This document shows positions 3,790 to 64,000 of a DNA stretch of 64,000 bases, piece by piece; the first letter of the stretch is position 1; every line of letters starts with the position of its first letter. The position numbers and the translations under genes were made by a program. Under the pieces are notes generated by a model. It made no database searches, was not told where the DNA came from, and worked only from the letters and a program-made list of their open reading frames with translations. This DNA is from Patescibacteria group bacterium (GTDB lineage Bacteria; Patescibacteriota; Minisyncoccia; UBA6257; GWB1-50-10). The stretch is taken from contig JANBVK010000001.1 of assembly GCA_024239035.1 (NCBI GenBank), positions 107,010 to 171,009 of the forward strand. Direction: 5' to 3'.

Positions 3790-4908
3790 ATGACATCAAA
3801 ATCTAAAAAAATTGTTAGTAAATTATTTACGGAAGCCGATATAAAAATTAACGGCAGCCGGCCGTGGGACATTCAGACACACAACGAAAAACTTTTTGAC
3901 CGTCTAATAAACCAGGGTTCTATGGGTTTGGGAGAGTCTTATATGGACGGCTGGTGGGACACAGAAAAACTCGATCAGTTTTTTTACAAGATTTTTAGCG
4001 CTGGATTAGATAAAAAAATTAAGTACGACTGGAACCTTATCTTTGCATACTTAAAATCCAAGATACTAAACACGCAGACAAAACAACGAGCCAGGAAGGT
4101 GGCTGAAGAACACTATGATCTCAGCGCAGAGCTGTATGAATCGTTCCTGGATCCATATAATCAATACACGTGTGGATACTTCAAAAACACTAAAGATCTC
4201 AATAAAGCGCAGGAGCAAAAGCTTCGTCTTATCTGTGAGAAATTGCAGCTTTCGCCGCAAGATAAAGTCCTGGATATTGGCTGTGGCTGGGGAGGATTTG
4301 CTAAATTTGCTTCCGAACACTACAACTGTCATGTTACCGGCTTGACCATCTCAGATAAGCAGCTTAAATACGCCAAAAAATATTGCCGAGGACTTCCGGT
4401 TAAAATCATTAAATCAGACTACAGAGACATCAGCGGCAAATACGATAAAATAGTGATTTGCGGCATGATAGAGCACGTTGGCTATAAAAATTACAGGACT
4501 ATCATGAAAGTTGTTCACCGTTCTTTAAAAGATGATGGTCTTTTTCTATTACATACCATCGGAGGAAATACTTCAGTGACCACCGCAGATCCATGGATAT
4601 TAAAATATATTTTCCCGAATTCTATGCTTCCATCGATCAAACAAATTTCCTCCGCGACAGAGAGGCTGTTCGTTATTGAAGATTGGCACAATTTTAGTAC
4701 GCATTACTATAAAACATTGATGGCTTGGTTCGATAACTTTGATCGCAACTGGCAGAAATTAAAATCTCAATATGATGAACGTTTCTATCGAATGTGGAAA
4801 TACTATTTACTTTCTTTTGCAGGATCATTTCAGGCGCGTAAAAATCAGCTCTGGCAAATCGTATTCTCAAAGAAGGGTTTGCCGGGCGGATACACTTCAA
4901 TCAGGTAA
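3790..4908 (+). CDS. cfa: Cyclopropane-fatty-acyl-phospholipid synthase (SAM-dependent methyltransferase)
   Basis: LDIGCGWGGFAKFASEHYNCHVTGLTISDKQLKYAK SAM-binding motif. Overall CFA-synthase-like sequence and length (372 aa). Confidence 0.85.
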   Translation: MTSKSKKIVSKLFTEADIKINGSRPWDIQTHNEKLFDRLINQGSMGLGESYMDGWWDTEKLDQFFYKIFSAGLDKKIKYDWNLIFAYLKSKILNTQTKQRARKVAEEHYDLSAELYESFLDPYNQYTCGYFKNTKDLNKAQEQKLRLICEKLQLSPQDKVLDIGCGWGGFAKFASEHYNCHVTGLTISDKQLKYAKKYCRGLPVKIIKSDYRDISGKYDKIVICGMIEHVGYKNYRTIMKVVHRSLKDDGLFLLHTIGGNTSVTTADPWILKYIFPNSMLPSIKQISSATERLFVIEDWHNFSTHYYKTLMAWFDNFDRNWQKLKSQYDERFYRMWKYYLLSFAGSFQARKNQLWQIVFSKKGLPGGYTSIR

Positions 4909-5655: not shown

Positions 5656-6783
5656 ATGCGCAAGGCGCTACTCATATTACTTTTCATCATTGTTATAGCC
5701 GGGGGACTGCTTTTTGTCTCTCGCGATAAACTTGAGAGAAATTTTTTTAAGCCAACCGATACTAGTCTGGAGAAAGGCGTGCAGGAGGTGCCAGACGAAG
5801 ATATTAAGATAATCGCTGAAGATCTCAACATTCCATGGGAAGTTGCTTTTTTACCGAGCGGCGAGATACTTGTTACCGAGCGTACAGGGACTCTTCTTAT
5901 AATCGGGGTGGATAGAATAAAAATTCCCATTGAAGGCGTCGAGCATGTCGGCGAAGGCGGGTTGCTCGGCCTTGCTCTACATCCTGACTTTAGTGAAAAT
6001 AAATGGATCTATCTCTACCTTACAACGAGAACCGACACGGGGCTTGTTAATCGTGTTGAGCGCTATCGCCTCTTTGAAAATCAACTCTCTGACAAAACGA
6101 CTATCATTGATAACATTCCGGGAGCTTTATTCCATGACGGCGGACGAATTGCCTTTGGTCCCGACGGATATTTGTACGTAACAACGGGAGACGCCGGAGA
6201 CGGTGCCTCAGCCCAAGATACGGAAGCGCTGTCAGGAAAAATTTTGCGACTGTCGGATGATGGATCAATCCCTCCAGGGAATCCATTTGGCAACGCCGTG
6301 TACTCATACGGCCATAGAAATGCTCAGGGTCTTGCGTGGGATACGGCAGGGAATCTTTGGGCAACAGAGCATGGAAGGTCAGGGACCCGTTCCGGATTTG
6401 ATGAGCTAAACTTTATAGAGAAGGGGCAGAATTACGGATGGCCGGTTATTCAAGGTGACGAGGAAAAAGAAGGAATGATAAATCCCGTCATCCACTCTGG
6501 TCCGGACGAGACATGGGCTCCTGCGGGGGCATTATATTATAACGGGAGCATCTTCTTTACAGGATTAAGAGGAGAATCTATTTACGAATCAGACATTCAA
6601 GACGGACGCGTCTCCGATATACGCATACATCTGCGGGGGAAGTTCGGCCGATTGCGTGCAATGAGCATTGGATCAGACGGCTTTTTTTACATCACGACTT
6701 CCAATACTGACGGGCGCGGTAAAAAACATATAGGAGACGATAAGATCATCCGGATCAATCCAACTATCTTTTCGTCAACTTAA
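5656..6783 (+). CDS. PQQ-dependent soluble sugar (aldose) dehydrogenase, beta-propeller (YliI/GSDH family)
   Basis: NIPWEVAFLPSGEILVTERTG, HDGGRIAFGPDGYLYVTTGD and GHRNAQGLAWD motifs are characteristic of the glucose/sorbosone dehydrogenase family. N-terminal TM/signal. Confidence 0.75.
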   Translation: MRKALLILLFIIVIAGGLLFVSRDKLERNFFKPTDTSLEKGVQEVPDEDIKIIAEDLNIPWEVAFLPSGEILVTERTGTLLIIGVDRIKIPIEGVEHVGEGGLLGLALHPDFSENKWIYLYLTTRTDTGLVNRVERYRLFENQLSDKTTIIDNIPGALFHDGGRIAFGPDGYLYVTTGDAGDGASAQDTEALSGKILRLSDDGSIPPGNPFGNAVYSYGHRNAQGLAWDTAGNLWATEHGRSGTRSGFDELNFIEKGQNYGWPVIQGDEEKEGMINPVIHSGPDETWAPAGALYYNGSIFFTGLRGESIYESDIQDGRVSDIRIHLRGKFGRLRAMSIGSDGFFYITTSNTDGRGKKHIGDDKIIRINPTIFSST

Positions 6784-6856: not shown

Positions 6857-7460
6857 ACTGACCTAGCGCGAATCTCAGTTTCCGCGACTTTCGCGAAAGG
6901 AATGCAACAGTGCTATCCAATACCAGCCCCACAACCGGGTAGGCAAAATCCTGTGGCTGACCGCTGTAGCGGAGTGCGACCACAATGATTCCTAGAGCGA
7001 ACGCGCTCATCCACACATACCACGCAAGCGGCTCTTCATTGTTCGGATCCCGCCAGACACCTTCAATGGTCGGCAGAAACCCGATTGATATCGCCGTGAT
7101 TATGAGTAGGTTCGCATAAGTTGCCTCCCTACTCACCCACCACACGAAAATTGCAGCAAAACCAATAGTAAGAATGACTAACTCGTGTCTTGTGGGTCTT
7201 ACAAACTTATTGCGCAGGAGTACGCTCCAGAAAATGAGGGTTGCACCAATTGTCCCGGCAATCACCTGCAGCGACTTTACCCAATCAGCGCTCATTGCGA
7301 AGTACGAACCGGCATTTAAACTCATCAAAAAGAACACGATCATCCATGTCACAACATTCGGCCTCGAGCTCCCCTTCTGTGCTTGGTGGTTATAGAGTAT
7401 ATACGCTAAAAGATGAAGAACTGCGACAACAACACCCAAATAAGTGGTGAATCGTTCCAA
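6855..7460 (-). CDS. Hypothetical polytopic membrane protein
   Basis: 201-aa ORF with about 5-6 hydrophobic segments. No recognisable catalytic motif. Confidence 0.5.
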   Translation of the reverse strand: MERFTTYLGVVVAVLHLLAYILYNHQAQKGSSRPNVVTWMIVFFLMSLNAGSYFAMSADWVKSLQVIAGTIGATLIFWSVLLRNKFVRPTRHELVILTIGFAAIFVWWVSREATYANLLIITAISIGFLPTIEGVWRDPNNEEPLAWYVWMSAFALGIIVVALRYSGQPQDFAYPVVGLVLDSTVAFLSRKSRKLRFALGQ

Positions 7461-10180: not shown

Positions 10181-10708
10181 ATGAACTTTAAAAACCCATC
10201 TTTTAATATTCTAATTATCGTAACACTCCTGTTACTTAGCGTCTCAGTCTCTAATGCCCATATAAGCATTGGTGAATACGCCGGAACTCACGCCGTATCA
10301 TTTGACCCCGAGCCGCGCTCACCATTTGTCGGAGAAACGGTGGATATGGATTTCTACCTGCGCGATTTGAGCGGTAACTTTGCAAACGAGCCCTTCTTGA
10401 TAACGGTAAACGTTCAAAAAGTCCTGCCTGATGATTCTGAGATTACAATCTTTACCACCGAACCAGAGATTATAATAGACGGCAACTATAAAACGAATTA
10501 CAAATTTACCGAACCGGGACACTATCGCTTGGAATTTAATTTTCAAAGACCGAGCGAACCAGACATTAGTCGCGAAGGTATTTTTGATATTGAAGTACGC
10601 GATACGACTGGCGGAACCTCTACCACAACTATTCTTATTCTCTTGGTTCTCACTGCTATCCTTGCATTTACTGCCAGTTCTATCTTTACCAAACGCAGGA
10701 CATCCTAA
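10181..10708 (+). CDS. Hypothetical secreted protein with C-terminal TM anchor
   Basis: N-terminal signal peptide and a C-terminal hydrophobic segment followed by KRRTS. Confidence 0.5.
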   Translation: MNFKNPSFNILIIVTLLLLSVSVSNAHISIGEYAGTHAVSFDPEPRSPFVGETVDMDFYLRDLSGNFANEPFLITVNVQKVLPDDSEITIFTTEPEIIIDGNYKTNYKFTEPGHYRLEFNFQRPSEPDISREGIFDIEVRDTTGGTSTTTILILLVLTAILAFTASSIFTKRRTS

Positions 10709-19549: not shown

Positions 19550-21337
19550 TTACACTACCTCCGCCTGATAACACTGCTCGCAATAAACTATCTCCTCCCT
19601 ATCTGGTGCGTATGACGTTTCAAACTCGTTGGGACACCTGCCTTCCAGGTGATGATTATGCTTCGTGGTGTTTTTGTACACCTTGTAATCACACACGCAT
19701 TGACGATGAAAAAGCTGAGGTCGATTTCTCCACGCAACTCTATCAAAGTGTCTACAATTGAAACAAAGCCGAGGTAACGGCAAATTCAGTTGGCGATAAA
19801 ATTGAAGTTCTTGGAAAGTAATACGAAAGGCCGTTGCACAATTTTCTCCACATTGCTCAGGATGATTATTATTTTCATCATGCTGGCATTGAATGACTTC
19901 TTTTAAGATGTCATCACCCAACTTTTGAATTTGATCGGGAAGTTCATCTGAGGTTTTAGTTATCGAATATGCCCTCTCTTTTGGTCTACGCCAGTTGTAA
20001 CCCTGCGCTTTTGCTTCTTTTTCCGTAAGCGGGAAATATTCATGTGCCTGTGTTTCACTGTATCCAAATGCACTCATATCTGGCGGGAAAAATTCACCGT
20101 ATTTATACACCCGTCCTTTTGCATCAACATAAGGCATTTTGTTCATATGTTTAATGATTTTCGGAACCATCGCTCTATAGTCTTCTTTCGAATATTGCCT
20201 ATTTAAAATGCAGTATTGCTTGCTCTTCAATGCTACACAGCCAAACAAATTGTTTGATTGACGACAATTTACTGTATAGCGAGATTCATTTGCCGCAAAT
20301 GATTCAGCTGTAAAAAATGTGTTATAGATACCGTGGCCGGTGGCAATAATATCATAGGTAAGCTCTGTACCTTCGGAAGATGTAACATCCATGCCGTCTT
20401 TATTTGGACCATAAATCACGCTTTGGCAATGAGCCATATTTTGAGCAGTGCCCACAAAAAAACAATTACGAAGCTCTGTTGCATTATAGAGATAATCACC
20501 AGTACAATTTTTTGCTTGTACGCTATGCTGATATTTGACGGGGTGTTTGAGCCATACTTCCATTGCTTGTCCTCGAGCACGCTCAATACCAGACCAAGAA
20601 TCAAGTCTCATTTCTGCAAGCTTTTTTTGATATTCCTCCTTGCCGTAAGATTCATTGAAAATATGATAGCTCTTATTTCGCAACCCTGAACAACCAAAAC
20701 AACTATCACATCCGACACAATCCTGACTGAACCATACGTCGTTACACGAAGTGCAGCTTCGTGAGAAGAAGGTTTTATACGAATCATTGGTGTTGATACA
20801 GTAGTAGCAAAGCTCACATCCTTTACAGTTGACCATATCTATACACTGCTTACTCCTCAGTAATGTGACACTGTAAGCGCTATCCTCTAGGTATCCTGCA
20901 TCAAAACACAAGTAGCAGTTTTTTGCCCATGCTGCGATACTGTAATCACTGTTTGTTTTTTCCATAGACCACATAGGAGCCCATGGAACTTTGTTAAACA
21001 AGTCCCTGATTTGTTCAAAGAATGGTTTTGAGAAATCATACTCCATTCCATAATCCATGGGGTCCCATGCATCACTCTCCCAGTATTCGTAATCATAAAC
21101 TGGCATTGGAGCATCGGGAGGAATTAAGGTAAATATTTTCTTTCCTGTGGCATCACAAGTACGTTCGTAAAGGTATCGCATGTTGCGAAAAGACATCCGA
21201 CGCATTGCTCGGCATTTCCAACAAAACGTCGGCACCGGCACTTTTATCTTCTCATAAAACGCAAAATCTTGAGCCTCAACCTCAAATGAGTTCTTACAGT
21301 TCTGACATAGTCGTTTTTCGGCTTGGAAATCAGACAT
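19550..21337 (-). CDS. Cys-rich multi-CxxC zinc-ribbon protein, paralog 1 of a 4-5 member family (cytoplasmic, 595 aa)
   Basis: N-terminal CQNCKNSF...CWKCR and C-terminal RCPNEF...YCEQCYQAEVV zinc-ribbon-like motifs. Internal CKGCELCYYC and DCVGCDSCFGC clusters. No signal peptide. Confidence 0.8.
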   Translation of the reverse strand: MSDFQAEKRLCQNCKNSFEVEAQDFAFYEKIKVPVPTFCWKCRAMRRMSFRNMRYLYERTCDATGKKIFTLIPPDAPMPVYDYEYWESDAWDPMDYGMEYDFSKPFFEQIRDLFNKVPWAPMWSMEKTNSDYSIAAWAKNCYLCFDAGYLEDSAYSVTLLRSKQCIDMVNCKGCELCYYCINTNDSYKTFFSRSCTSCNDVWFSQDCVGCDSCFGCSGLRNKSYHIFNESYGKEEYQKKLAEMRLDSWSGIERARGQAMEVWLKHPVKYQHSVQAKNCTGDYLYNATELRNCFFVGTAQNMAHCQSVIYGPNKDGMDVTSSEGTELTYDIIATGHGIYNTFFTAESFAANESRYTVNCRQSNNLFGCVALKSKQYCILNRQYSKEDYRAMVPKIIKHMNKMPYVDAKGRVYKYGEFFPPDMSAFGYSETQAHEYFPLTEKEAKAQGYNWRRPKERAYSITKTSDELPDQIQKLGDDILKEVIQCQHDENNNHPEQCGENCATAFRITFQELQFYRQLNLPLPRLCFNCRHFDRVAWRNRPQLFHRQCVCDYKVYKNTTKHNHHLEGRCPNEFETSYAPDREEIVYCEQCYQAEVV

Positions 21338-21464: not shown

Positions 21465-21502
21465 TTAATTACGTAATTAAATACGTATTTTAATACGTAA
21501 AT
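21465..21502. promoter_or_regulatory. Array of three TACGTA-centred palindromes at 12-bp spacing (AATTACGTAATT, AATACGTATT, TAATACGTAAAT) in the paralog 1 upstream region
   Basis: TACGTA at 21470, 21482 and 21494. The first two are perfect palindromes. Confidence 0.5.
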
Positions 21503-23290
21503 TCATACTACCTCCGCCTGATAACATTGTTCGCAGTAAACAATCTCCTTCCTCTCCGGAGCGTATGATGTCTCAAACTCGTTAGGGCATCTTCCTTCCA
21601 AGTGGTGGGAATGTTTTGTAGTGTTTTTGTATTTTGTAGCTTGCTCTGAGCCTGTCGAAGAGTCACACACGCACTGGCGGTGCCAAAGGTTTATAGGATT
21701 TCTTCTTCTGAAACGTGCATAATACCGGCAGTTGGGACATAGCCTAGGGAGAGGGATATTCATTTTTCTATAAAAATTGAGTTCATCAGAAACAATTCGG
21801 AAAGCCGTTACACACCTCTCTCCACATTTGCCCTGATGTGCACAACTAATAACTTCTTTCACAATACTGTCATCAACGTCTCTTATATGGTCAGGAAGTT
21901 GCTCTGCAGAGACAGTGATCTGATAAGAAGGTTTTTCGAGGTCACGCCAATTAAATCCTTGAGCAAGAGCGCGTTCTTTATCCAGCGGAAAGTAATCATA
22001 GGCCGGCGTTTCATTATAGGGGAAGGGAGACAGTTCTGTTGGAAAGAATTCTCCGTGAGCATATATCTTTCCCTTTTTATCTTTATATGACGCCTCGTTC
22101 AAGTGGTCTATAATTTGAAGAACAAGCTCCTCATATTTTTCTTTAGTATATTCTTTGTTTAAAATGCAATACTCCTTCTTGCGAAGTCCGATACACCCAA
22201 ATAAATCATGGCATCCGTTTTTACATATGTCACAATAGGTAATATTTCGCACTTCTGGCCAGGCATCCGAAGATAATTTCACATTGTAGGCATTCACGCC
22301 CATGGTGTTCACCTCATAGTTCAATTCCATCACGCAACACCCGTTGTTGATATCCATGGAATCCTTCGCTTTATTTACAAAAAGGCAATATCGGCAGTTT
22401 TCAAGTTCAGCCCCATTGAAACAGTGATAACAATCTTTAGAGTATGAAATCGTGTTTCCAACGACATTTGTTACGTTTTTAGTATAGGCATGTTTGTGCA
22501 ATGCTTTCTTTCTCATTGCTTCAAATTTAGCGGCATACGTTGAAAAATTCTTATACGAACCCGTATCAATGTCTTTCATTTTTTGCTTATAGTCCTCTTT
22601 GGTACATTGCTTATTTTCAAACACGTGAGACTTGTTCCAAATATTGCTGCTTAAAAAGCAATCTTGGGAACCCCTGGCATCGAAACAGAACGAAAGCCCC
22701 GTAGAACTCGCACAGTTTTCAACAAATATAAGTTGTGACACCTCGAGGCATTCGATACATTCATAACAATACTCTCCCCGGAGCACTATGAAACAATCAA
22801 CCAAGTTTTTAGAGTTCAAAATTCTGTAGCTATACATCGAGTCCTCGTTGTCCGAGCCTGAAAAAATGAGATAGCAATTTTTGCAATTTGCAATCTGGTT
22901 TGCGTATTCACAATTCACGCATTTATCAACTTGGAGCGCTACTCGAGGTACTTTATTCTGCAGCTCCTTAAATTGTGTAAAGAACGGTTTATTAAAATTG
23001 TATTCTCTTCCATATTGCGTTCCATCCCACTTATCTGAATACCAGCACTCTCGGCAATATACGGGGAAAGTCACATCCTGAGGATACATAGCAATAATAT
23101 CCTTGCGACAAAGGTCACATATTCGTTTATGAAGGCTTCTCTCATTTCGCCAAGAAAGTCTGCGTTGCAGCCGGCACGGAGGACACCACGTAGGCGCCGG
23201 CACTTTTATCTTCTCATAAAACGCAAAATCATCCGGTTCGATGGTAAACTGGTTTTTGCAGTTTTGACACTGTCTGGCCTCTTGTGTCAT
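21503..23290 (-). CDS. Cys-rich multi-CxxC zinc-ribbon protein, paralog 2
   Basis: Same architecture and termini as paralog 1 (CQNCKNQF...CPPCR at the N-terminus, YCEQCYQAEVV at the C-terminus). 35-bp nucleotide-identical patch with paralog 1 (GCCGGCACTTTTATCTTCTCATAAAACGCAAAATC). Confidence 0.8.
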   Translation of the reverse strand: MTQEARQCQNCKNQFTIEPDDFAFYEKIKVPAPTWCPPCRLQRRLSWRNERSLHKRICDLCRKDIIAMYPQDVTFPVYCRECWYSDKWDGTQYGREYNFNKPFFTQFKELQNKVPRVALQVDKCVNCEYANQIANCKNCYLIFSGSDNEDSMYSYRILNSKNLVDCFIVLRGEYCYECIECLEVSQLIFVENCASSTGLSFCFDARGSQDCFLSSNIWNKSHVFENKQCTKEDYKQKMKDIDTGSYKNFSTYAAKFEAMRKKALHKHAYTKNVTNVVGNTISYSKDCYHCFNGAELENCRYCLFVNKAKDSMDINNGCCVMELNYEVNTMGVNAYNVKLSSDAWPEVRNITYCDICKNGCHDLFGCIGLRKKEYCILNKEYTKEKYEELVLQIIDHLNEASYKDKKGKIYAHGEFFPTELSPFPYNETPAYDYFPLDKERALAQGFNWRDLEKPSYQITVSAEQLPDHIRDVDDSIVKEVISCAHQGKCGERCVTAFRIVSDELNFYRKMNIPLPRLCPNCRYYARFRRRNPINLWHRQCVCDSSTGSEQATKYKNTTKHSHHLEGRCPNEFETSYAPERKEIVYCEQCYQAEVV

Positions 23291-59831: not shown

Positions 59832-60800
59832 CTACAACTCTTCTTTTTCCAGACAGCGGGCCATCGGTAGAAATTTTTTCACCAGGAAGAGTGCGTAGCT
59901 TTTCGGTACATACTTGATGGGTACATGATACAAATCAACCCAGACATGACTGTAAATTGCAAAGAGTATAGATTGTTTTAAATAGTGCCGCTCTTTTTTT
60001 GATAGCTTTCTTTTTTTTAAATATCCCTCTAGAAATTTTTTAGTTAACGCTCTATCCAACCGTCCTTTACTCTCACAATTCCACATAATTGTTTTTCCCA
60101 CATCGAACACAAAAGAGTCCACATACGTATTGCCGAAATCAATCACCCCAGTTAATTTCTCTCCAATAAAAAGTTCGTTGTCGAGTTTGATGTCCACGTG
60201 GATTGGGCCCCGAGGAAGCCATTTGGGCAGACGATTATTCAGAACTCCCCGTTTTACCTCTTCAACAACTGCCTTTAGCTGGGGATGAGTTTGTCTTTTC
60301 ACATAACGATACATTAATGCCATTATTTTAGGGTTTAGGTCGTAAAATCTCCGCCTGCCCCGCATTGTCTTTTTGAACTTACTGCCCAACTTATGAAATT
60401 CTCCAACAAATTCACCAAGCTGATACGCCATCTTTGGTGTAATTCTTTTTGGTTGCCGACCGGGCAAAAATCGATACACGCTTACTGCGTATCCTTTGAA
60501 ATTCTCAAGATATTTTCGGCGTTTTGATGGAATATAATGAGGAACCGGTAAACGTTTCAGGTGTGTAAGAAAATTTATCTCGTGCAGGAGAGCGATTCTC
60601 GGCACGATCTTCATATCCGCAACAACGACTTTCTTGCTGGACAAATTGTGCTTTGCAACGATAAATTTCCCCTTCGGGGTTGTAATTGCTACCTTTGGCG
60701 TCTGATACCCCTGCCGGAAATACGTAATGTTCCCTATCTTACCAAGCTCAAATAAGTCTGTAATCTGCTGATATTCCCTTTTAGAAAAAAATTTAAGCAT
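59832..60800 (-). CDS. APH/CotS/homoserine-kinase-II family protein-kinase-like protein, translationally coupled to the upstream Cys-rich paralog
   Basis: Brenner motif IHVDIKLDN and DFGNT. AUG (MLKFF) 2 nt after the paralog 3 stop with GGAGG 10 nt upstream. The ORF-track start at 60836 overlaps the upstream gene. Confidence 0.65.
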   Translation of the reverse strand: MLKFFSKREYQQITDLFELGKIGNITYFRQGYQTPKVAITTPKGKFIVAKHNLSSKKVVVADMKIVPRIALLHEINFLTHLKRLPVPHYIPSKRRKYLENFKGYAVSVYRFLPGRQPKRITPKMAYQLGEFVGEFHKLGSKFKKTMRGRRRFYDLNPKIMALMYRYVKRQTHPQLKAVVEEVKRGVLNNRLPKWLPRGPIHVDIKLDNELFIGEKLTGVIDFGNTYVDSFVFDVGKTIMWNCESKGRLDRALTKKFLEGYLKKRKLSKKERHYLKQSILFAIYSHVWVDLYHVPIKYVPKSYALFLVKKFLPMARCLEKEEL

Positions 60801-60802
60801 TT

Positions 60803-62551
60803 CTACACCACCTCCGCCTGATAACACTGCTCGCAATATACAGTCTCCGGTCTATCAGGAGAATACGAAGACTGCATAGACTTTCCACATTTCACGCATT
60901 TTCTCTCATACAACTCCAGCACGATAGAGCCGAACTTTTTTCTTTTCTCTGCCAACCGTACACTGTAATGTTTCTGGGGTAAGGGAAGATTATATCTCCT
61001 GTAAAACTCTAATTCTGCCTTTATATAGCGGGATTTCTTATTATTTTCGCTGTCAAAGACAACTTTATTCAAAATATCGTCTTTCACCTCACGAATATCC
61101 TTAGGAAGATCTTTTGAATCAACGATTTCTCCTTCCACCTCATACAAAGTCTCCTGGATATCTTCTGTCCGATATCCATACCTCCTCGCCGTCTCAACGT
61201 CATCATATCCTTTATAGGAGGTAGCAATAGAAATATTGTAGGGAAACGGTGAAAGTTTGGGTGGGAAAAATTCTCCATATTCACCTTTCTCTAACATTTT
61301 TGCCTTTACTTTATCTACCATCTCCCAATAGTCTTTCTCAGCGTACTGCTTATTGAGAATACAGAACGATTTATTTTTAAGTCCGATGCAACCAAAACAG
61401 TCGTGGCAGTTAATACAGAGATCACAATATTCTATCTCACGGCAATCATCAACATCAATGGAAAATTTAATCCCGTAGTTATTGTCACCTGCCCAAGATT
61501 CATAACTAAACTCCGTACCTACACCGCCAACAATATCGTATGAATCTCTGGTTTTCGTAACTCCAATGGAATATGCCACGTTTTCCCCACCAATAATATA
61601 AAAACAAGCGTAACAATTTTTGGAATCCTTAATATAATCACCAAAACTTGCGACCGCTCGGTCGTTGTGAGTTTCTTTATAAAACGCCTTCTTTTTCAAT
61701 TCGGTGAACTTTCCTTTTAAAGAATTTAAAGATTCTCGGTCGCCAAGATTTAACGCTCGTATCTTCTCCTCATAAGCCTTTTTAGTCAACGGTTCATTAA
61801 AAAAGTGGTACTTTTTGTGACGCAAATTCACACAACCAAAACAGTATTCGCAATCTCGACAATCGAAAAGGAAGTAGGAATAGAGACAATGCTTCGAGTG
61901 CTCCACAAAAAAACAATTGAAGAGATCAGAACTTTCGAAACAATCGTAGCAGGTATCAGAGTTTCTCAGTGCAAAACCATCAAAGCAACTTCGCGAATCA
62001 ATCAAAGAAATACTATACGCACTATCTTCAGATTGGTAAGAATCAAAAATTAAATAGCAGTTTTTCAGTCGAGTCGAGTTATTGGTATAATCACTCCTAA
62101 TGCTTGTACTATCAATGTGGAGATTGGGCCGAGGAACGTTCCGCATAAGCTCTCCAAATTGATCAAAGAATCCCCGGCTATCGGTGTAGGCGCTGGCATA
62201 ATCGTTAGGATCCCATTCCTCGCCAAACCACATCTGATGTTCATAAACTTTGTATGGTGTGGTAGGGGGGTACTGAGAAATAATCGACTTTTTAGAAAAA
62301 GATGATACTACCTTAAAAAGATTGTAAGAATTCGTAAAAGCAATTTTTCTCCGTATACGTTCCTTGGGAGATAACGTTGGCAGAGGCACCCGCATTTTCT
62401 TGTAAAACTCAATATCTTCCGGACGAACGTAAAATTTCTCACCAGAAAATCGGCAAGTCCTCCACTGACCTCCCTTCTCATCTAATTCAAGTTTGGAAAA
62501 GTATTCATCCAGCGCTTTATCAAATTGTGGAGTTTTGCTCACTTGATTCAT
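60803..62551 (-). CDS. Cys-rich multi-CxxC zinc-ribbon protein, paralog 3 (N-terminal ribbon Cys lost)
   Basis: Same conserved blocks (KNCYLIFDS, CRDCEYCFGC, CDLCINCHDCFGC, GEFFPPKLSPFPYN, LEFYRRYNLPLP) and YCEQCYQAEVV terminus. Confidence 0.8.
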   Translation of the reverse strand: MNQVSKTPQFDKALDEYFSKLELDEKGGQWRTCRFSGEKFYVRPEDIEFYKKMRVPLPTLSPKERIRRKIAFTNSYNLFKVVSSFSKKSIISQYPPTTPYKVYEHQMWFGEEWDPNDYASAYTDSRGFFDQFGELMRNVPRPNLHIDSTSIRSDYTNNSTRLKNCYLIFDSYQSEDSAYSISLIDSRSCFDGFALRNSDTCYDCFESSDLFNCFFVEHSKHCLYSYFLFDCRDCEYCFGCVNLRHKKYHFFNEPLTKKAYEEKIRALNLGDRESLNSLKGKFTELKKKAFYKETHNDRAVASFGDYIKDSKNCYACFYIIGGENVAYSIGVTKTRDSYDIVGGVGTEFSYESWAGDNNYGIKFSIDVDDCREIEYCDLCINCHDCFGCIGLKNKSFCILNKQYAEKDYWEMVDKVKAKMLEKGEYGEFFPPKLSPFPYNISIATSYKGYDDVETARRYGYRTEDIQETLYEVEGEIVDSKDLPKDIREVKDDILNKVVFDSENNKKSRYIKAELEFYRRYNLPLPQKHYSVRLAEKRKKFGSIVLELYERKCVKCGKSMQSSYSPDRPETVYCEQCYQAEVV

Positions 62552-62558
62552 ACTCTAT

Positions 62559-62582
62559 TTAACAATTCGCGCGAATTGTTAA
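62559..62582. promoter_or_regulatory. Perfect 24-bp palindrome TTAACAATTCGCGCGAATTGTTAA filling the 32-bp spacer between paralogs 4 and 3
   Basis: Self-complementary over all 24 nt. Confidence 0.55.
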
Positions 62583-62583
62583 G

Positions 62584-64000
62584 TCATACTACCTCAGCTT
62601 GATAACACTGTTCGCAATAAACGACTTCTGGTCGGTCAGGGGCATAGGTTGTTTGAATTGACTTACCACATTTCGCACACTTCCGCGCGTAGAGTTTGAA
62701 GGGCCCCCGGCGGCGGAGACGATCAAGATAACGGCAGTTAAAACATTTCAGCGGTACAGGAATGAGCATCTTTCGATAAAACTCCAACTCTGGCTGAATT
62801 AAGCGGTAATTGAAACTACAACCCGTACACTTCAGCACTTCCTTCACAATGCTGTCAGGAATGTCTTTAATATGATCCGGTATATCTTCGGGTTGAATCG
62901 TTTCGTGGCCTTTCGTACGGGGAATATCATCTTCCCATCGAAATCCTTCAGCAACTGCCTGCTCTTTAGATAAAGGATAATTCTCTTGGGCTGGCGTCTC
63001 GTTGTAGGCGAAAAACGCAAGTCTTAGTGGAAAATATGAACCATATAATCCATCCTGTTCCATCTGTCTAACTATCTGATCTCGCATTTTACTGTAGTCT
63101 GATTCACTATACTGTTTATTTAAAATATAGTACTTTCCATTCTTCAACCCATCACATCCGAAACATTCCTCTGATCTACTCATGCCAAAACAGTACCGAA
63201 GTCCTCTGCAAGAATCACACCCCCATGACCCAATTACATTGTACGAGTATCCAACCGCAACGGTTTCCAACAAAAGCTCAGAGTCATACCCATATCCCAT
63301 AACGTCATAGCTATCCCTAGTAGATTTTGTAGCAAACTCAAATTTACAATCCTCTGATTCAGTTACCTCGAAACAGTGTTTACAATTCTTCGAATTGAAA
63401 ATATACTCCCCTTCTGAACCAACAGACTTTAAATTATTATTCTGCCTACGAGGGAACTGAAGCGCATGCTCCTCAAATTTCTCAAGCGCATCTTGAACCT
63501 TTTTATAACTCCCGGCAATCTCGGCAACTCTTTTCTCATATTCTTCTTTAGACAACGCTTCATTAAAAAAGTGATACTGCTTGTTACGCAAATTAACGCA
63601 CCCAAAGCAATCTTGACAGTTACTACAACCAAGTAAAAACCACGAGTTCAAACAGCTCATCACGTTCTGACCGTACCGCACGCCGTGGCTTTTATGCCCG
63701 TTAATGCATTCGTAAGATTGTTCAAGACTAATCGCGAAATAGATATCCAAAGAATCCCGACAATCTTTCACCCCACGCGAATAAGCTACATCTTCGTTAT
63801 AACCGCTATTAAATATTAAATAACAATTCTTGTTATATCCGGCGAAATTTTGGTATTCACTATTAACACTCGTACCTATCGTTGTATAAACGCTTTTCTT
63901 CGGTACCTTCAGCATTAACTCCTGTAATTGATCAAAGAACGCCCTCGAAGGATTATAATCTCGGGCAAAAGACTTTGCATCCCATTTATCTGAGTTATAA
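62584..64000 (-). CDS. Cys-rich multi-CxxC zinc-ribbon protein, paralog 4, 5'-truncated by the window edge
   Basis: The frame remains open upstream of the ORF-track Met to the window end (reads ...YNSDKWDAKSFARDYNPSRAFFDQLQELMLKVPKK, homologous to the WDxxxYGxEYxFxKPFFxQ block of the other copies). Ends YCEQCYQAEVV. Confidence 0.75.
   Translation of the reverse strand, partial: YNSDKWDAKSFARDYNPSRAFFDQLQELMLKVPKKSVYTTIGTSVNSEYQNFAGYNKNCYLIFNSGYNEDVAYSRGVKDCRDSLDIYFAISLEQSYECINGHKSHGVRYGQNVMSCLNSWFLLGCSNCQDCFGCVNLRNKQYHFFNEALSKEEYEKRVAEIAGSYKKVQDALEKFEEHALQFPRRQNNNLKSVGSEGEYIFNSKNCKHCFEVTESEDCKFEFATKSTRDSYDVMGYGYDSELLLETVAVGYSYNVIGSWGCDSCRGLRYCFGMSRSEECFGCDGLKNGKYYILNKQYSESDYSKMRDQIVRQMEQDGLYGSYFPLRLAFFAYNETPAQENYPLSKEQAVAEGFRWEDDIPRTKGHETIQPEDIPDHIKDIPDSIVKEVLKCTGCSFNYRLIQPELEFYRKMLIPVPLKCFNCRYLDRLRRRGPFKLYARKCAKCGKSIQTTYAPDRPEVVYCEQCYQAEVV

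Follow-up and report, generated by a model that had tools for sequence, protein, structure and literature searches.

Genes and palindrome at the locus

The stretch of DNA analysed here, referred to in the following as the window, is 64,000 nucleotides (64 kb) of a metagenome-assembled Patescibacteria genome and encodes four cysteine-rich paralogs, at positions 19550-21337, 21503-23290, 60803-62551 and from 62584 onward. They share 33-44% pairwise sequence identity, contain 4-7% cysteine with 10-13 CxxC motifs each, and all have a common C-terminal end, VYCEQCYQAEVV; their sole family match is a weak one to a treble-clef zinc finger, at the C-terminus. The last two, paralogs 3 and 4, are neighbours on the minus strand. 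Paralog 4 (62584-64000) is represented by its C-terminal 471 residues, its N-terminus lying past the end of the window, and its 3' end reads ..AGTATGA (62584-62590) with the TGA stop codon at 62584-62586, while paralog 3 (582 residues, 60803-62551), which is likewise rich in cysteine, has its ATG at 62549-62551.

Between these genes, directly upstream of paralog 3, we find a perfect 24-bp palindrome, TTAACAATTCGCGCGAATTGTTAA, at 62559-62582, built from two 12-nt arms without a spacer. The first-pass annotation had described it as the spacer between the two paralogs, beginning 1 nt past the stop codon of one and ending 7 nt before the start codon of the other, and on both counts it was right: a single nucleotide (62583) separates it from the paralog 4 stop and seven (62552-62558, ATAGAGT on the minus strand) from the paralog 3 ATG. 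Read on the gene strand, the junction thus runs ..GAGGTAGTATGA, C, the palindrome, ATAGAGT and the ATG AAT.. of paralog 3. No second copy occurs in the 64-kb window, even when up to six mismatches are allowed, and only 3 of 200 dinucleotide-preserving shuffles produced a loopless perfect palindrome with arms of 12 nt or longer, so that an origin by chance is unlikely.

On the other side of paralog 3, a kinase-like open reading frame with motifs of the aminoglycoside/choline-kinase type (59832-60836) starts about 2 nt past its stop codon. This frame is missing in a sister genome, where a 200-nt gap with a class-B palindrome is found instead (L010 4665-4864).

Palindromes at other paralog junctions

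It had further been proposed that each paralog has its own palindromic control element. This holds for a minority of the family: by our own count over a listing of 183 paralog 3' junctions, about 16% carry a palindrome whose arms measure 10 nt or more, and most of the junctions are short spacers or ATGA overlaps. These palindromes fall into several unrelated sequence classes. One of them, ACTATGA-N4-TCATAGT with the centres TGCA, CGCG, CATG and others, lies just past the stop codons of cysteine-rich paralogs (L010 4671-4688; L002 4798-4819; L015 ~1377-1396; L074 ~6458-6481; L080 ~1221-1242; L082 ~4883-4904 and 6857-6896), including the paralog 3 orthologs of L010 and L002, and is probably the site of another regulator. 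A different element, an array of TACGTA units (ATTTACGTATTAAAATACGTAT..TACGTAATTAATT), lies between paralogs 2 and 1 in the window (21469-21500) and is kept at the orthologous junction of the sister genome (L090 6340-6392), likewise with three TACGTA units.

Orthologous junctions in related genomes

The closest comparison is provided by loci L010 and L090, which belong to one sister genome, with protein identities to the window of 91% for LepA, 89% for paralog 2, 88% for paralog 3, 84% for a DUF4012 protein and 80% for HisPhos. More distant orthologs of paralog 3 are found in L001 (72% identity) and L002 (66%). In L001 and L010 the TGA of the upstream paralog overlaps the ATG of the paralog 3 ortholog (..GTATGA..) without any spacer, and in L002 the gene for an MFS transporter overlaps it by the same ..GTATGA.. 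arrangement. The first-pass annotation had looked to the orthologous spacers of relatives for the palindrome; the paralog 3 spacer is missing there, being replaced by the ATGA overlap, but the sister genome has the identical 24 bp, together with the adjoining ATAG, one junction further upstream. There, in L010, the site lies 1 nt past the TGA of a paralog A and 12 nt before a paralog B, which in turn overlaps the paralog 3 ortholog. Blastn aligns positions 62621 to 62555 of the window with L010 1151-1217 and positions 62536 to 60800 with L010 2932-4668, and finds no counterpart in the window for the 1.7-kb paralog B. Since the same site stands upstream of B in L010 and of paralog 3 in the window, it heads the paralog 3 unit in both.

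The homology blocks and the junction sequences also account for the nucleotides around the paralog 3 start codon, AGTATGA (62548-62554, minus strand): they are what remains of the overlap (..GTATGA) between the stop codon of the lost paralog B and the next start codon. The same seven nucleotides also end paralog 4, and we considered the insertion of a MITE or transposon with a 7-bp target duplication. We rejected it on the grounds that the second AGTATGA is the B overlap relic; for a MITE or IS element, moreover, the two heptamers stand 1 nt and 4 nt away from the arms, and the palindrome is present in a single copy in the window. A different remnant is seen in L102 (1-86), where about ten terminal codons of a paralog (..FEQRYQTEVV and the stop) are all that remains before the site and the frame is broken ahead of them; it shows that the loss of paralogs extends as far as their 3' end and the site.

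The identity of the two copies stands against a diverged background. Four-fold degenerate sites are 0.60-0.73 identical between the window and the sister genome (L010/L090), so that neutral retention of all 24 positions has a probability of about 0.67^24 ~ 7e-5, and the site is either constrained or homogenised.

A motif family in Parcubacteria

As fuzzy searches of loci from relatives show, the palindrome is one copy of a Parcubacteria motif family, nnnACAATTC-N4-GAATTGTnnn, with variants in which changes in one arm are compensated in the other (e.g., TTTCTAATTCGCGCGAATTAGAAA, TCTCTTATTCGCACGAATAAGAGA and TAAACAATTCGCGCGAATTGTTTA). On the gene (minus) strand, the family alignment divides the window copy into a first half-site, TTAACAATTC (62573-62582), a 4-bp centre, GCGC (62569-62572), whose sequence differs among the copies, and a second half-site, GAATTGTTAA (62559-62568), followed by a right flank, ATAG (62555-62558), that it has in common with L010, L002, L021, L034 and L102. 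The centres found in the family are GCGC, TCGA, TATG/CATA, GCAC and TAAC, and in L010, L090, L021 and L034 the dyad reaches 28-34 bp. Across an alignment of 20 sites, the ATT of one half-site and the AAT of its partner are invariant and the C:G pair adjoining the ATT core is retained in 19, with the outer 3-5 nt varying symmetrically.

A search for CAATTC-N4-GAATTG with at most one mismatch returned 26 matches in 666 kb, compared with 0-6 in shuffled sequences. Leaving aside the matches brought in by the pattern scan itself and three one-mismatch matches, these are found next to arsR-like genes, ahead of cysteine-rich paralogs or ahead of other genes nearby. In the window, L010, L021, L001, L079 and L034, a copy is followed at a distance of 2-25 nt by the ATG of a cysteine-rich paralog, and the same holds for the downstream copies of L092 and L002. 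Within a genome the copies co-vary, both being of the TCGA form in L102 and all three identical in L097, which fits either gene conversion or copies that follow the specificity of a single regulator.

Scanning a genome collection for TTAACAATTC-N4-GAATTGTTAA gave six matches, of which only one, from Sungbacteria (L004), resembles a member of the family. Two come from the same contig of one Harrisonbacteria genome and were set aside as coding coincidences, as both encode LNNSDELL, one in a TsaE-like gene (L006 5099-5122) and the other in a ComEC-like gene (L009 7183-7206); that two unrelated genes of this genome contain the same 24-nt quasi-palindrome is itself probably a coincidence. The other three are from outside the CPR, lie upstream of unrelated genes (including LysR and Hsp20) or near no clear open reading frame, and were treated as chance or unrelated matches. 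Literature searches for the motif core sequence, and for Patescibacteria in combination with leaderless and Shine-Dalgarno, returned no matches, and we regard the family as a previously undescribed one of candidate ArsR-type operators in Parcubacteria.

The ArsR-like gene and its two flanking sites

The assignment to ArsR rests on the company that the motif keeps. We first saw it on both sides of a gene of about 90 codons with an HTH_5 domain in L016/L090 and L002, and then examined the contigs of homologs of this gene. In all eight lineages covered (L090/L016, L102, L002, L092 from Jorgensenbacteria, L095, L097, L099 and L101), an ArsR/SmtB-family gene for a protein of ~88 residues (86-90) is bracketed by the motif. 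The protein matches HTH_5 (PF01022) and scores 49-52 bits against the ArsR/SmtB subfamily model NF033788, whose cut-off is 55; its best relatives of solved structure include HlyU, SmtB, CzrA, PagR and CadC, and the L016 protein contains no cysteine. The arsR-like homologs found number 1,439.

The copies flanking the gene are related to each other in different ways. In L102 the upstream and downstream sites have the same sequence, TTAACAATTC-TCGA-GAATTGTTAA, and so they do in L097, with AGTACAATTC-TATG-GAATTGTACT on both sides and a third copy further upstream. In L092 the downstream site is the exact reverse complement of the upstream TGAACAATTCGCGCGAATGGTTAA, and in L095 it is a near mirror image. 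L099 has AGGACAATTC-TATG-GAATTGTCCT upstream, AGGACAATTC-CATA-GAATTGTCCT downstream and a third copy, TGTACAATTC-CATA-GAATTGTCCT, further upstream, and L101 has TGTACAATTCGCGCGAATTGTACA upstream and TGAACAATTCGCGCGAATTGTTCA downstream. In L002 the downstream copy is in two parts: the left half, CCATTTCTAATTCGCGC, forms the last codons of the arsR-like gene, and the right half, GCGGAAATAGGAAAATATG, adjoins the ATG of the next paralog.

On the upstream side, the site directly adjoins a TATAAT, TATGAT or TATAAA hexamer in L097 and L099 and ends 6-17 nt before the -10 box of the arsR-like gene in L002, L092, L101, L090 and L102 (hexamers read by eye). The genes around this unit differ from lineage to lineage and include HisPhos, LepA, cysteine-rich paralogs, a convergent glycosyltransferase, a methyltransferase and archease-RtcB.

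Several details of these loci deserve mention in their own right. In the mirror-image pairs (L092 3953-3976/4275-4298; L095 3902-3925/4287-4310; L099 3919-3942/4327-4350) the same asymmetry, CAATTC..GAATGG or TATG versus CATA, is turned toward the gene, or away from it, at both flanks, whereas the copies of L097 are direct; a simple operator model does not explain the mirror arrangement. In L002 (6925-7203) the two halves of the split downstream site are separated by an inserted GC-rich hairpin of about 45 nt. In L097, some 78 nt are identical before the arsR-like gene and before a gene for a hypothetical protein of 323 residues (2296-2375 and 3915-3995), and this repeat, which holds the site, a TATAAT box and the leader, amounts to a copied promoter module.

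Because the motif always brackets an ArsR-family gene in relatives, the palindrome is most likely the binding site of this regulator. One of the proposals of the first-pass annotation, a site for a dimeric regulator, thereby gains support, both from the linkage in eight of eight lineages and from the conserved half-sites around a variable 4-bp centre. Its companion proposal, a recombinase site, finds no direct support, as no recombinase gene lies nearby.

Mobility nevertheless deserves to be weighed on wider grounds, with the palindromes as the ends of a relocating arsR cassette or as breakpoints at which paralog cassettes are gained and lost, and the window copy as one left behind. The genes that surround the arsR-like gene and its two sites change from each lineage to the next; mirror-image flanking copies occur in L092, L095 and L099, and the copies of one genome stay identical even when the centre changes, as in L102 and L097; and the presence or absence of paralog B breaks exactly at the right flank of the site, before which L102 keeps only the relic of a paralog 3' end. 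However, no copy has a recombinase or transposase gene beside it, the 88-residue winged-helix protein has no catalytic domain, target-site duplications are absent (the AGTATGA repeat being a relic of a paralog 3' end), the symmetric GCGC centre confers no directionality, and, among the variants, those of the form TTAAC...GTTAA are the only ones to fit the attC core consensus, in elements far shorter than attC. We therefore consider mobility very unlikely.

A related idea, to which we give little credence, is that the arsR-like gene and its two palindromes form a self-contained relocating module that would act, when bound by protein, as a transcriptional insulator or cassette boundary, where cassettes of cysteine-rich paralogs are gained, lost and shuffled; the window copy would then mark the loss of B and perhaps of the arsR-like gene.

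The window itself has no arsR-like gene detectable by tblastn, and the best profile HMM match within its 64 kb has an E-value of 1.4. At the syntenic locus, where L090 and L102 have the order paralog, site, arsR, site, (HisPhos), LepA, the window passes directly from paralog 1 to HisPhos, and none of the arsR-like homologs listed comes from the 621,264-bp contig of the source genome. From these three observations it follows that the site may be an orphan, a once functional operator that is now inert and decaying or neutral after the loss of its regulator. It is, however, still a perfect palindrome and identical to the sister copy at 24 of 24 positions, despite a divergence of 27-40% at four-fold degenerate sites; even for the window lineage alone, we estimate the odds of this under neutral evolution at about 0.82^24 ~ 0.01. 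As the window covers only about 10% of the 621-kb genome, the regulator may also be encoded elsewhere, and a decayed orphan seems improbable to us.

DNA site or RNA hairpin

Palindromes of this kind could act in DNA or in RNA, and the variation among family members bears on the choice between the two. In the 20-site alignment, 9 of the 12 symmetric pairs have changed on both sides, an outcome reached in none of 500 shuffles; G.U occupies 2 of 240 cells, and 21 cells are non-canonical. Conserved half-sites at a fixed spacing around a free centre are the signature of a dimeric DNA-binding protein. The free energies of the hairpins that nine members would form as RNA range from -15.1 to -2.2 kcal/mol, and for three of the nine, the upstream and downstream copies of L092 and the downstream copy of L095, all flanking arsR-like genes, folding is no better than in shuffled sequences (z ~0). 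The family thus keeps its half-site sequence and dyad symmetry but not its hairpin stability, and has hardly any G.U pairs, which argues for recognition of double-stranded DNA by a dimer. A structured RNA would show a conserved stable stem and compensatory changes with G.U intermediates, a pattern that the family lacks.

For the window copy, the first-pass annotation had envisaged a 12-bp RNA hairpin occluding the start region of paralog 3. The stem reaches at most 10 bp, closed by a GCGC tetraloop (-9.1 kcal/mol, z = -3.8), and ends 7 nt before the ATG, leaving the start codon outside. Occlusion in RNA is a weak candidate for the primary function also for the scarcity of Shine-Dalgarno sites and the three members that fold like shuffles. 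An intrinsic terminator was rejected as well, none being called between 60500 and 64000, where the stem, AT-rich rather than GC-rich, is followed by AUAGAGUAUG without a U-tract, and so was a known RNA family, for lack of any Rfam match at E <=1.

The hairpin could still act in a co-transcript of paralogs 4 and 3 by hindering the re-initiation or loading of ribosomes at paralog 3, and may in addition stabilise the 3' end of the paralog 4 message or determine where it lies. The copies of the window, L010 (-11.2 kcal/mol) and L021 (-15.1 kcal/mol) fold well, the element lies 1 nt past a stop codon in four genomes of the clade, unstructured start regions matter in a genome almost devoid of Shine-Dalgarno sites, and the spacer of the window abolishes the coupling that relatives achieve by ATGA overlaps. 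Indeed, symmetric co-variation, on which we rely for an operator, is also expected from a hairpin, and the window copy is a good one. On the other hand, the folded members that do no better than shuffles all lie next to arsR, on both strands most imperfections are mismatches other than wobble pairs, the 101-nt region around the window palindrome is not unusually stable (z = -0.8), and the sites of L097 and L099, which adjoin the -10 box on its upstream side, would lie outside the transcript. An RNA hairpin is on balance an unlikely explanation.

A putative operator upstream of paralog 3

The reading that we favour, and hold to be probable on the basis of comparative sequence evidence, is that the palindrome is a putative double-stranded DNA operator of a homodimeric, ~88-residue winged-helix regulator of the ArsR/SmtB family that is widespread in Parcubacteria. 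The perfect 24-bp dyad agrees with what is expected of ArsR/SmtB operators, an inverted repeat of ~24-28 bp with two half-sites. The two 10-bp half-sites (nnnACAATTC), set around a 4-bp centre of free sequence, would bind the dimer; in relatives, one copy upstream of the regulator gene, overlapping or adjoining its promoter, and a second just downstream of it would be bound in the same way, as would the further copies 2-25 nt before the start codons of cysteine-rich paralogs. In the window, an occupied site would shut off paralog 3, either by occluding a weak, leaderless promoter of this gene or as a roadblock to RNA polymerase reading through from paralog 4.

As to the first route, a -10-like hexamer, TTAAAT (62557-62562, minus strand), overlaps the right end of the palindrome, matching TATAAT in five of six positions and preceded by TG. 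The right arm and its flank read TGTTAAAT and leave 5 nt to the paralog 3 ATG; a bound dimer would therefore cover the -10 region and the start of a possible leaderless promoter. Hexamers placed in this way recur in the window, where, in 12 of 53 genes, a sequence matching TATAAT at five or more of six positions stands 6-8 nt before the start codon and 7 of 53 have a Shine-Dalgarno site; the peak of TATAAT-like hexamers at this distance implies widespread leaderless mRNAs. The gene at 10181, with TGTTAAAAT, then 6 nt and then the ATG, resembles the start of paralog 3. TTAAAT might thus conceivably serve as the promoter of a leaderless paralog 3 mRNA, at a spacing from the ATG of 5 nt versus a modal 6. 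A consensus scan paired no full sigma-70 promoter with the window site, and there is no -35 partner. A geometry as in the arsR promoters, with a -35 box in the right arm and a -10 box 17 nt downstream, was rejected, as neither the window nor L010 has a -10 box at this position.

Significance

Patescibacteria are mostly uncultured and encode very few transcription factors, and, to our knowledge, hardly any experimental work bears on how this group (CPR) regulates its genes. Comparative genomics here allows a cis-element to be matched, in many lineages, to one particular small regulator of the ArsR family. The result is a candidate regulator-operator pair and, with it, a first way into a large and uncharacterised family of ~580-residue cysteine-rich paralogs with 10-13 CxxC motifs each. 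That the regulator gene has a site at either flank is an unusual, conserved arrangement, which may show how compact genomes with leaderless transcripts and few terminators insulate neighbouring transcription units.

Comparison with known systems

Like REP elements and other intercistronic hairpins that stabilise transcripts, the palindrome lies between cistrons right after a stop codon, where it could protect the upstream message and uncouple the genes; unlike them, it is present in one copy in 64 kb, is kept in sequence rather than in stability, and is linked, as a family, to a regulator and not to a RAYT transposase. With the attC sites of integrons it shares a position at the 3' end of several tandem genes, and the TTAAC...GTTAA ends fit RYYYAAC/GTTRRRY by eye. 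These sites are, however, roughly 57 bp or longer, as against 24-30 bp here, and the palindromes have no second (L) box pair, extrahelical bases or nearby integrase, with family members such as TTTCTAATTC.. and TCTCTTATTC.. lacking the core consensus altogether. An attC-like site was accordingly rejected, the core fitting only the TTAAC/GTTAA copies, the element being too short and no integrase being encoded in any of the loci. The hix and gix sites of DNA invertases are quasi-palindromes of ~24-26 bp placed as mirror images around a segment, as are the copies in L092, L095 and L099, but the loci here contain no invertase gene, most copies have a symmetric centre, those of L097 are direct, and the segment is the regulator gene alone.

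The closest parallel is with the operators of the SmtB/ArsR family, such as smtO/P-SmtB, czrO-CzrA, ziaO/P-ZiaR and nmtA-AzuR. Proteins of this family recognise inverted repeats of the 12-2-12 type, located at transcription start sites or close to them, and regulate cysteine-rich metallothioneins (PMC8790569). The Parcubacteria system departs from these in the half-site, ACAATTC in a 10-4-10 arrangement rather than a TGAACA-type 12-2-12 repeat, in a shorter regulator (86-90 residues, free of cysteine in L016 and just under the NCBIfam cut-off), and in the second site that always follows the regulator gene. Common to both are a dyad of ~24-30 bp, a small winged-helix homodimer as the binder (predicted in our case), and a location at or overlapping the promoters of the regulator's own gene and (putatively in our case) of target genes, which would here, too, include cysteine-rich proteins. 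While the parallel with metallothionein targets is suggestive only, the regulator itself is homologous to SmtB, CzrA, HlyU, PagR and CadC.
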